DNA of 64,000 bases from a phage. The notes below the pieces were generated by a model. That model was not told where the DNA came from. It did no database searches and saw only the letters and a list, made by a program, of their open reading frames with translations. The first letter of the stretch is position 1; the number at the start of each line of letters is the position of its first letter. The stretch is taken from sequence record PZ386974.1. One strand, 5' to 3'. Both the position numbers and the translations under genes were made by a program. Shown one piece after another: positions 24,840 to 26,885 of the stretch.

Positions 24840-25022
24840 TTATAGTGAATTCACGTAGTCAATGAGTTCTTGTTCTTTCCTGTCAAATGATTCCATCAAT
24901 GCGTGATATTCTTCGTCCGTCAAAGGAGCATATTCATCGTACGCATTGGTGGCTGCTTGTTCATCCAATAGGTCATGGATAAGTTCAAACAGTTTAGTTT
25001 TCTCTTCTTTAGACAATTTCAT
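24840..25022 (-). CDS. Hypothetical acidic protein
   Basis: 60 aa ORF. Confidence 0.45.
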   Translation of the reverse strand: MKLSKEEKTKLFELIHDLLDEQAATNAYDEYAPLTDEEYHALMESFDRKEQELIDYVNSL

Positions 25023-25513
25023 TTAGGTTCCCAATCAACAATCACAATTTCTAGTTTAGTGGAATACGTATCCAAAATCTCTTCGATGACATCCCAGTTT
25101 CCACCACCAATACCTGCACCAATTCTTGGCATATAAATTACAGGCTTTGTTATCTTATTCTTTCCGAATTCATTTAATTCTATTATACAATTCATTAAAG
25201 CAGAGTACTCAAAATTAGGTCCCGGCTCAAACTGTGTATAAAGATTAAAGCAATAAGCTTTATGGGTCTTAAAATATTTTTCATAAACCGAATAAGTCCC
25301 GAGTTTAGACTCGTCTCCGAATTCGGTTTGAAGTTTATCGGCTTCCAGAATTTTTGGATAAGCCTTTGCTAATTGTCCTGCCACACCCGCGCCCATTGTA
25401 TGAAAACAATTACACCCATGAGCAATATTATTACCTTTAGAAAACAGGGCGACAATATCGCCCTTGATATAGTTTTTAATCACTTGCTGCAAGTCCTCTA
25501 TTATAAGAGTCAA
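25019..25513 (-). CDS. Macrodomain protein (TARG1/DarG-like ADP-ribose binding or hydrolase fold); start codon uncertain (TTG at 25513 or GTG at 25483)
   Basis: YIKGDIVALFSKGNNIAHGCNCFHTMGAGVAGQ and YMPRIGAGIGGGNW align to the TARG1 motifs (IAHCISEDCRMGAGIA and MPRIGCGLDRL) as recalled. Confidence 0.65.
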   Translation of the reverse strand: MTLIIEDLQQVIKNYIKGDIVALFSKGNNIAHGCNCFHTMGAGVAGQLAKAYPKILEADKLQTEFGDESKLGTYSVYEKYFKTHKAYCFNLYTQFEPGPNFEYSALMNCIIELNEFGKNKITKPVIYMPRIGAGIGGGNWDVIEEILDTYSTKLEIVIVDWEPK

Positions 25514-25823
25514 CTAGACGGTCCACCATAGAATTGCATGCTGCCTTATCTTTAGGTTCCGCCACCGAGCATTCTAATATTTGCCATTTTTTATAGTATC
25601 TTTTAATTAAGGTAGACGCCTTGAACCTACTAGACGCCCCATCTTTTTCTCCGTCTTTATACGCATATAACAATTTTTGTGAAAAATCTACTTTACACTC
25701 TTGACTTTTACCACAATAATCAGACGCCGTTCTATTTGTATACTCCGTTACATCAGTATATGTAGTATTAGCAAGAGCGTTAAATGAAACCAAGCCAACT
25801 ATTAAAGCCAACATTTTGGTCAT
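25476..25823 (-). CDS. Hypothetical periplasmic protein with signal peptide (T4 vs-size, 115 aa)
   Basis: MTKMLALIVGLVSFNALA signal peptide; four cysteines. Confidence 0.5.
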   Translation of the reverse strand: MTKMLALIVGLVSFNALANTTYTDVTEYTNRTASDYCGKSQECKVDFSQKLLYAYKDGEKDGASSRFKASTLIKRYYKKWQILECSVAEPKDKAACNSMVDRLVDSYNRGLAASD

Positions 25824-26362
25824 TCTTTTATTTCCAGTAGTTTATTTGATTTAAGGTAATTAGCCTTTTCTAGGACTTCAGAAGCATATTTATTTCCAGC
25901 ACTTGTCTTCCATCCCGCATTATATGAGGATATAGCTTTTCTTATATCCCCGTTATGTATATTTAACCAATAAGAAAATTCGATATAAGCCCATCTGGCT
26001 GAATTAGACCGCTTAGATAGCATTTTCTTAATTTGGGCATCAGTCATATTATAACCAAGCTGGTTAATTCGTGCCCTCATTGTTGGTAGATAATTTTGGA
26101 ACATTCCATACGCATGGTGACCTTTCTTATCTTTAAGATTAATACCAGCAGATGATTCCTGCCATAGTATTGCGGCCATTATGTATCCAAGTCCTTTCTT
26201 ATGCATATTTTCATGCGTTTTAAATTTTCCATCCTTAGAAAACTGTTCCCCAAACTGATAAGCATAATTCAAGTTATCGAGTTGGACATTACTAAAAGTA
26301 TGCTCGGAGCTATGTGCTGATAACGAAAGAGCAAATAGACCAGCGAGTAGTGCTTTTCTCAT
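25820..26362 (-). CDS. Putative secreted lytic transglycosylase (SLT-like domain)
   Basis: Signal peptide MRKALLAGLFALSLSA; WQESSAG...YGMFQ...SYNAG resembles SLT catalytic motifs. Confidence 0.5.
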   Translation of the reverse strand: MRKALLAGLFALSLSAHSSEHTFSNVQLDNLNYAYQFGEQFSKDGKFKTHENMHKKGLGYIMAAILWQESSAGINLKDKKGHHAYGMFQNYLPTMRARINQLGYNMTDAQIKKMLSKRSNSARWAYIEFSYWLNIHNGDIRKAISSYNAGWKTSAGNKYASEVLEKANYLKSNKLLEIKE

Positions 26363-26370
26363 GTTTACCT

Positions 26371-26829
26371 CTAGATTTTAATCACTGCTTTAGAAGCTTT
26401 TCCTGGTAGTCGTTTACTGTTAATAATAGCCATTCTACATTGAAGAGTCTTCATTTTGAATGCCGGATTTTCGCGACAAACTGTAAGTCCTAACCAAAGA
26501 TTTCCATCAGTTATTTCTAAACGGCCTGGGCGGTACTCGACACCTTCGACAAAATCTTCATCAACATCCGGACGTGCCGGCATTGATAAAAATTCTGCAA
26601 CTTCTTTAACGTGATTTTTTACTTTATGAAATAATTCAAAAACGTAATTCTCATCTATTTCTCTCTGGATGGCACGATCTAAGAGATGTTGAGAATACTT
26701 GATATGAAAGCCTGGTAGTCCAAGAGACTTTGCAGCATCTTTTATACCGGCATTTATTTTGCGGAACTCCGTTTCAAAGATTCGACGGAGTTTATTACGG
26801 CGGATAAAAACTTCCGAATTGATAGTCAT
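26371..26829 (-). CDS. regB: Endoribonuclease RegB
   Basis: Track ORF 26371..26853; ATG at 26829 gives MTINSEVFIRRNKLRR...RMAIINSKRLPGKASKAVIK, near-identical to T4 RegB as recalled. Confidence 0.9.
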   Translation of the reverse strand: MTINSEVFIRRNKLRRIFETEFRKINAGIKDAAKSLGLPGFHIKYSQHLLDRAIQREIDENYVFELFHKVKNHVKEVAEFLSMPARPDVDEDFVEGVEYRPGRLEITDGNLWLGLTVCRENPAFKMKTLQCRMAIINSKRLPGKASKAVIKI

Positions 26830-26834
26830 TTTGA

Positions 26835-26885
26835 TTTCTCCTCTAGTTGACAAGTCTATAGTAACACAACTAGAGGAGAAGTAAA
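26835..26885 (-). promoter_or_regulatory. PeSL upstream of regB: GTTTAC -35 and 14 bp inverted repeat TTCTCCTCTAGTTG/CAACTAGAGGAGAA around the -10
   Basis: Right arm contains the GGAG Shine-Dalgarno of regB; coordinates approximate. Confidence 0.5.

Follow-up and report, generated by a model that had tools for sequence, protein, structure and literature searches.

A phage ortholog of T4 Tk.4/AdfM, a predicted macrodomain protein, matches the glutamine-type active site of SCO6735

Introduction

Does the minus-strand open reading frame that lies between tk and regB in a 64,000-nucleotide stretch of phage DNA (record PZ386974.1; this whole stretch is called the window below) specify an enzyme that removes ADP-ribose from DNA, and with which active site would such an enzyme work? 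DarTG systems block phages by attaching ADP-ribose to the phage DNA, and T-even phages appear to carry one eraser for each flavor of DarTG: AdfN for the guanine marks of DarT1 and Tk.4/AdfM for the thymine marks of DarT2. AdfN (gene 30.3), a NADAR enzyme, protects T-even phages against DarTG1 but gives no protection against DarTG2 (PMC11825919). A HIDEN-SEQ transposon library of T4, put on DarTG2-expressing cells, gave tk.4 as its one significant hit, and a clean knockout of the gene makes T4 sensitive to DarTG2 (10.1101/2025.11.20.689424). The gene was renamed adfM (anti-DarT factor Macrodomain) in that November 2025 bioRxiv preprint, whose authors say of the enzymatic removal of ADP-ribose from DNA that it "seems likely" (10.1101/2025.11.20.689424).

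An earlier note on the window, made from the sequence alone, had read the frame as a TARG1/DarG-like macrodomain protein with a plausible role in counter-defense. That role is already known: the T4 ortholog has been published, and near-identical genes are annotated as macro domain proteins. New here are the corrected start codon, the absence of the TARG1 Lys/Asp dyad, and the correspondence with the Gln-type site of SCO6735. A T4-type enzyme that lacks the lysine of DarG and TARG1 and has a SCO6735-type Asn-Gln site goes beyond the cited literature, and the glutamine site bears on the origin of the phage gene and on whether inhibitors and activity probes made for DarG would work on the T4-type enzyme.

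Results

Gene order and identity of the locus

The DNA of this region is 98.5-98.8% identical to that of Mosigvirus phages, e.g., JK36 and vB_EcoM_G53. BLASTP against T4 proteins recovered the T4 order rI, rI.1, tk, tk.2, tk.4, vs, vs.1, regB, vs.3, with identities of 52% (rI), 64% (rI.1), 81% (tk), 49% (tk.2), 84% (tk.4), 68% (vs), 83% (vs.1), 78% (regB), and 59% (vs.3), which bears out the earlier placement of the gene between tk and regB. From the DNA identity to Mosigviruses and the T4-like gene order we conclude that the window, judged by its sequence, belongs to a Mosigvirus-type T-even phage and that the frame is the counterpart of T4 tk.4. T4 Tk.4 is 84% identical to the product over 153 aa (25 of the 153 aligned positions differ), and the window gene is its ortholog. 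Phages like JK36 and vB_EcoM_G53 carry the macro gene under the label "macro domain protein" or "phosphatase." The features of the locus are:

24840..25022: tk.2-like gene, downstream of the macro gene (ORF list)
25019..25022, minus strand: ATGA overlap, the TGA of the macro gene with the ATG of the tk.2-like gene (sequence check, ORF list)
25019..25483, minus strand: predicted macrodomain coding sequence, 154 aa, ortholog of T4 Tk.4/AdfM (ORF, T4 identity, Pfam, AlphaFold2)
25446-25464, minus strand: terminator-like hairpin AGGGCGAT-ATT-GTCGCCCT, then GTTTTCT (8-bp GC-rich stem, T-rich tail)
25481..25483, minus strand: GTG, most likely the start codon (position of the T4 ATG, starts of relatives, upstream TAG)
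25484..25513, minus strand: in-frame extension up to a TTG, within the vs coding region and absent from T4 Tk.4
25476-25823, minus strand: vs homolog, valyl-tRNA synthetase modifier (BLASTP, 68% to T4)
25820-26362, minus strand: vs.1 homolog (BLASTP against T4)
26371-26853: regB, the next gene after vs.1 (BLASTP against T4)

The putative anti-defense macro gene lies directly downstream of, and overlaps, vs, a gene conditionally important for growth: no T4 gene was depleted more strongly than vs in minimal medium (HIDEN-SEQ preprint, 10.1101/2025.11.20.689424). The vs.1 homolog of JK36 is labeled "endoribonuclease RegB," and several adjoining small ORFs are also called endoribonuclease; in the T4 record, vs.1 is listed as hypothetical, and the gene after it is the real regB. 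The endoribonuclease labels around vs.1 look like annotation errors copied between phage records. A promoter scan found 7 sigma-70-like sites, compared with 11.4 in shuffled sequence, and is uninformative on expression.

Start codon

Unbroken on the minus strand, the frame spans 25513 to 25019 and would give 164 aa if counted from the TTG at its upstream end. The earlier note had proposed a non-ATG start (TTG or GTG), which stands, and had given the gene as 25019-25513; its upstream end, TTG 25513, gives way to GTG 25483 on the evidence of T4, close relatives, and GenBank. The true start is most likely this GTG, giving 154 aa, because the ATG of T4 Tk.4 is exactly the codon that is GTG here (25483..25481), because an in-frame TAG stands two codons ahead of the GTG position in L003 and L004, two relatives with 99% identity, and because the GenBank annotation of near-identical phages starts there. 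Among 53 related loci, the start at this position is ATG in 48 and GTG in 5. An AGAGGA Shine-Dalgarno-like motif ends 10 nt upstream of GTG 25483, and the first 8 nt of the gene are also the last 8 nt of vs.

The extension 25484..25513 is probably not translated as part of the macro protein. TTG 25513 was rejected as a start: the extension that it would add is unconserved as coding sequence, closed by a stop in the 99%-identical relatives, and absent in T4 Tk.4. TTG 25492 was rejected as well, its extension being unconserved and stop-closed in close relatives, and the AGAGGA motif being adjacent, too close for a ribosome-binding site.

A hairpin and a deletion at the ends of the gene

The terminator-like hairpin lies 12 nt past the vs stop, inside macro codons 7-13. 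T4 and about 20 of 43 distinct relatives retain it, and compensatory changes occur in the stem (GGGAGAT/ATCTCCC and GGCGAC/GTCGCC). Its covariation score was 0.232, compared with 0.166 in shuffles (0 of 500 shuffles scored as high), a control that related sequences alone can exceed. The hairpin could be a terminator, an attenuator, a stabilizer of the 3' end of vs mRNA, or a control element for translation of the macro gene.

At the other end of the gene, about 410 bp that separate tk.2 from the macro gene in other Mosigviruses (JK36, L001, 2532-2941) are missing in the window; the deleted segment contains a Cys-rich 68-aa ORF and tk.3. A 5-nt GAACC microhomology marks the junction (window 25019-25030) in the last macro codons. 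The deletion turns the macro C terminus from WEPLL-stop into WEPK-stop and recreates the ATGA overlap with tk.2. Of the 374 matching phage records, AV116 (OR352946) alone matches the same junction in one piece. Between T4 (Tequatrovirus; L002, 4714-4926) and JK36 (Mosigvirus; L001, 2723-2935), tk.3 shows 100% identity in protein and 96-98% in DNA, but identity falls to 76-86% in the tk.4 DNA next to it. This sharp mosaic boundary at tk.3/tk.4 suggests a recent exchange of tk.3, the gene that is missing in the window.

Fold class

Both motifs that had been quoted from the frame by eye, IAHGCNCFHTMGAGVAGQ and MPRIGAGIGGGNW, are present in its translation. As for the TARG1 strings set beside them, MPRIGCGLDRL is exact, while the other reads LAHCISEDCRMGAGIA in PDB 2lgr and does not begin with IAH. 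A Pfam search, one of the checks put forward in the earlier note, matched Macro (PF01661) with 28.1 bits, above the gathering score of 22 (E=2e-6), and the family profile aligned with TARG1 at an hhalign probability of 98.2% (E=5e-14). Searched against PDB chains, the family profile matched Bt_1257 of Bacteroides (4e-17), TARG1 (5e-16), yeast Poa1p (2e-14), SCO6735 of Streptomyces coelicolor (7e-14), and Mtb DarG (3e-13). These scores put the resemblance far above chance level. The single protein, searched against PDB sequences, gave Bt_1257 (6e-11), Poa1p (1e-8), SCO6735 (6.5e-5), TARG1 (about 7e-4), and DarG (1e-3 to 6e-3); a profile of 117 homologs raised these five to between 1e-10 and 4e-17, with coronavirus Mac1 at 1.5e-4.

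The AlphaFold2 model had a mean pLDDT of 95.8 and a pTM of 0.91, and its top Foldseek neighbors were TARG1, Poa1p, DarG, Bt_1257, and SCO6735. A clear gap separates Bt_1257, Poa1p, DarG, and TARG1 from other macrodomain classes among the structural neighbors. In both profile and structure the protein is nearer to TARG1, DarG, Poa1p, and Bt_1257 than to MacroD-type, viral, PARG-like, or macroH2A-like domains. We conclude from profiles and model that the predicted product consists of one macrodomain, which falls in the ALC1-like (TARG1/DarG/Poa1p) class. The earlier assignment to a TARG1/DarG-like macrodomain is thus upheld by the Pfam score, the hhalign match to TARG1, and the modeled fold.

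Poa1p and some annotations point to another function within this class, namely a housekeeping ADP-ribose-1''-phosphate phosphatase or O-acetyl-ADP-ribose deacetylase that, like Poa1p, would clear small ADP-ribose metabolites. The protein matches PHROG 335 (E=9e-67), which is labeled "phosphatase"; the T4 record has "contains A1pp phosphatase motif"; the HxCNC motif is common to Poa1p; and the family has long been annotated as ADP-ribose-1''-phosphate phosphatase. These labels, however, are transferred annotation and not assays. The Poa1p match is weak in the C-terminal half (just 8-10 bits by phmmer for residues 119-156), and Poa1p has Ser, not Gln, at the position of Gln84, as read from partial alignments. 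We know of no production of ADP-ribose-1''-phosphate by T4-type tRNA repair, and the sole known phenotype of the T4 ortholog is lost resistance to DarTG2. Hence we consider a metabolite-clearing function quite unlikely.

Active-site residues

A six-sequence MAFFT alignment got the central strand wrong, and at this strand hhalign against gp104 of PhiKZ alone was out of register; profile alignments were used instead. They place the following motifs:

25409..25420, minus strand: H22-G-C-N25 motif, equal to H24-V-C-N27 of SCO6735 (translation check, conservation)
25379..25396, minus strand: glycine-rich loop M30-G-A-G-V-A35, as MGAGIA in TARG1 (TARG1 alignment)
25232..25246, minus strand: N80-L-Y-T-Q84 (hhalign and hmmsearch alignments)
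25094..25129, minus strand: P119-R-I-G-A-G-I-G-G-G-N-W130 loop (translation check, alignments, conservation)

The motif match made by eye masks the absence of both TARG1 catalytic residues: Lys84 is replaced by Gln84, and Asp125 by Gly126 (hhalign at 98.2% and hmmsearch alignment). Gln84, at the end of strand E74-84 in the AlphaFold2 model, stands where TARG1 (K84), DarG (K80), and PhiKZ AdfM (K78) have the catalytic Lys and SCO6735 has Gln85; the equivalence of DarG Lys80, TARG1 Lys84, and SCO6735 Q85 is that of PMC9411070 and not of a direct DarG alignment. Asn25 also corresponds to DarG N22 and PhiKZ AdfM N23, and Gly122 and Gly124 to SCO6735 G126 and G128.

Conservation was read from a family set of 261 sequences that includes 150 representatives of 50%-identity clusters. 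Gln84 is kept in 260, Asn25, Asn80, and Gly122 in 259 each, Gly124 in 258, and His22 in 250 of the 261, and the TARG1 Asp125 position is Ala or Gly in 259 of them. G33 and A35 are invariant or almost so; the M30-A35 loop would, by analogy, bind ADP-ribose. Across these alignments the missing Lys/Asp dyad appears as a fixed feature of the family and not as a defect of the window copy. The same pattern (H-x-C-N, N-x-x-x-Q, and PRIGxGhxGGxW) is found in Bt_1257 and SCO6735. H22, N25, Q84, G122, and G124, which match H24, N27, Q85, G126, and G128 of SCO6735, are kept in 96-100% of the 261 sequences. The protein therefore has the active-site features of the Gln-type subclass, Q84 with a locking N25 (equal to SCO6735 Q85 and N27) together with H22, G122, and G124.

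SCO6735 lacks the Lys and the Asp, yet clears DarT-made ADP-ribose from thymidine in DNA; it outpaces both DarG and TARG1 on dT-ADPr DNA and rescues E. coli from DarT toxicity (PMC9411070). Its Q85A and Q85E variants lost all activity, N27S lost almost all, and G128E was reduced (PMC9411070). In the proposal of Hlousek-Kasun et al., Asn27 locks Gln85, Gln85 sets the position of the distal ribose, and a backbone-held water starts the reaction (PMC9411070). The earlier note had taken absent catalytic residues to count against its reading. Lys84 and Asp125 of TARG1 and Lys80 of DarG are indeed gone, but activity is not thereby refuted, because SCO6735, which has the same Gln, is a very efficient dT-ADPr DNA hydrolase.

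Distribution of the family

By tblastn, relatives were found in 2,801 of 50,697 phage records, from phages of Escherichia, Klebsiella, Salmonella, Pseudomonas, Vibrio, Acinetobacter, and Aeromonas. The family profile matched 18,072 cluster representatives at E<=1e-3, 1,210 of them at 1e-30.

Discussion

We put at roughly 0.8 the probability that the gene encodes an orphan DNA ADP-ribosylglycohydrolase that erases the thymidine marks of DarT2 and so defeats DarTG2, most likely via a lysine-independent, SCO6735-type mechanism. The macro gene would be expressed early in infection together with its tk-to-regB neighbors, and the free-standing macrodomain hydrolase would remove the ADP-ribose that host DarT2 puts on thymidines in single-stranded phage DNA; once the marks were cleared, replication could proceed and the DarTG2 defense would fail. 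As there is no catalytic lysine, Gln84, held by Asn25, would position the distal ribose, and a bound water would start cleavage of the N-glycosidic bond to thymine. We infer that the window protein acts as T4 Tk.4 does, hydrolyzing dT-ADPr by the Gln-type mechanism.

Counter-defense against DarT ADP-ribosylation, as the earlier note had suggested, draws its support from the genetics of the T4 ortholog (84% identity, same gene order), the anti-DarTG2 phenotype being known in T4 only. The note's other suggestion, a modulator of the phage's own ADP-ribosyltransferases, found support in no result here. Reversal of the phage's own Alt/Mod marks was set aside because no result favors it and because the Alt/Mod enzymes make arginine-linked marks (T4 Alt, ModA, and ModB modify arginine).

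Activity might be wider than DNA. An eraser of dT-ADPr on DNA that also removed U-linked ADP-ribose from RNA and/or Glu/Asp-linked ADP-ribose from proteins would counter other ADP-ribosylating defenses or tune the marks made by the phage's own transferases. For the latter use, it counts against such breadth that this macrodomain class is, to our knowledge, not one that cleaves arginine-linked marks (Alt, ModA, ModB). SCO6735, TARG1, and DarG do also cleave U-ADPr on RNA (PMC13036486), and SCO6735 and TARG1 cleave Glu/Asp-linked ADP-ribose on proteins, less well than on DNA (PMC9411070); the size of the family (18,072 cluster representatives) and the approximately 2,800 phage records also hint at wider use. 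However, neither the results here nor the cited literature shows such a substrate in phage infection, and the adenine ADP-ribosylation of RNA by CmdT is described as irreversible (PMC13036486). We regard the wider activity as unlikely; it is plausibly an extension of the proposed erasure of DarT2 marks and not an alternative to it.

Protection without hydrolysis is a different matter. A non-catalytic or weakly catalytic macrodomain could act by binding or blocking DarT2 or by binding ADP-ribosylated DNA, and the missing catalytic Lys of the window protein would fit this. So would ALC1, whose macrodomain is a non-catalytic binder of ADP-ribose and has Gln at the Q84 position in the alignment. 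Moreover, Q85A, a dead SCO6735 variant, inhibits DarT by interacting with it, and does so more strongly than dead DarG or TARG1, so that protection might need no hydrolysis (PMC9411070). Yet the invariance of the SCO6735 catalytic residues across the family is hard to explain for a pure binder, and the C-terminal DarT-binding domain of DarG is missing. Protection by binding therefore seems to us very improbable, and we keep to a catalytic eraser of DarT2 marks.

The Gln-type site in T4-type AdfM suggests an origin separate from that of DarG. We tentatively propose, at slightly worse than even odds, that T4-type AdfM is no captured DarG but a separate, very large phage lineage of the Gln type that cleaves base-linked ADP-ribose without a catalytic lysine and was recruited independently of the Lys-type enzyme of PhiKZ. 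If this were true, phages would have recruited macrodomains against DarT2 at least twice, once as Lys type (PhiKZ) and once as Gln type (T-even phages), and the Gln-type enzyme might also erase U-linked ADP-ribose on RNA or the marks of other defense transferases. On the practical side, the gene for the putative second eraser is intact in this Mosigvirus-type phage, which would aid host-range prediction on DarTG2-carrying E. coli, e.g., in the choice of therapeutic phages.

Comparison with known systems

The closest known system is T4 Tk.4 itself, which is of the same size, occupies the same genome place between tk.x genes and vs, and has all family-invariant residues. It differs in its ATG start (GTG in the window gene), in its C terminus (...WEPLL, compared with ...WEPK in the window protein, where the adjacent deletion accounts for the change), and at position 127, where T4 has Lys and the window protein has Gly, the family consensus (242/261).

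SCO6735 (PDB 5E3B) and Bt_1257 (PDB 2FG1) belong to the Gln-type ALC1-like branch and are 23-29% identical to the window protein; they are cellular proteins, whereas the window protein is from a phage. All residues important in SCO6735 have equivalents here except Lys34, which is replaced by Ala32, and Lys89. The latter sits in a mobile loop of SCO6735 that is 5 residues longer than that of TARG1 or DarG and is absent in the window protein; the longer loop and Lys89 are the proposed reason for the efficiency of SCO6735 on DNA (PMC9411070). Indeed, the profile alignment with Bt_1257 requires a 6-residue gap after Q84, and the Q84-Y93 loop has the length of the K84-Y93 loop of TARG1. The aligned sequences thus describe a SCO6735-type active site combined with a short, TARG1-type loop.

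Human TARG1 (OARD1) has in common with the window protein the MGAG and MPRIGxG motifs and the length of the loop from residue 84 to Tyr93. It differs in having Lys84 in place of Gln, Asp125 in place of Gly, and Ser where the window protein has Asn25.

DarG (T. aquaticus, 5M31/5M3E; M. tuberculosis, 5M3I) has the catalytic Lys80 where the window protein has Gln. The NCBIfam DarG equivalog NF048014 gave 32.1 bits, against a cut-off of 250, and matched at model positions 4-148 of 338 only; the PADLOC DarG model matched at 5-145 of 329, the macro part alone (1e-8). The C-terminal DarT-binding domain of DarG is absent from the window protein, whose 154 aa are all macrodomain. No darT stands beside the macro gene, whose neighbors are tk.2 and vs in the phage early-gene cluster, and tblastn of plasmids gave no DarG-like match adjoining a darT gene. 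By these matches the window protein is a relative of DarG and not DarG.

PhiKZ gp104, which is also named AdfM, comes from a jumbo phage. It too consists of one macrodomain, and it defeats DarTG2. In vitro it strips DarT2 marks from DNA; its active-site residues are Asn23 and Lys78, with activity reduced in N23A (Cell Rep 2026, PMC13309987). We translated gp104 from the sequence in PMC13309987 for the comparison. Its kinship with the window protein is remote, and overall similarity is very low: BLASTP found a local match of 23 residues (E=0.004), and hhalign gave a probability of 96%. Of the PhiKZ pair Asn23/Lys78, the Asn is kept (N25) and the Lys is not (Gln84); the equivalence of K78 and Q84 rests on that with DarG K80 given in PMC13309987, the local alignments of gp104 being unreliable at that segment. 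On this comparison of sequences, the Gln-type AdfM of T4 and the Lys-type AdfM of PhiKZ are separate lineages of one class, and transfer of the AdfM name between T4 Tk.4 and PhiKZ gp104 by annotation would hide the mechanistic difference between them.
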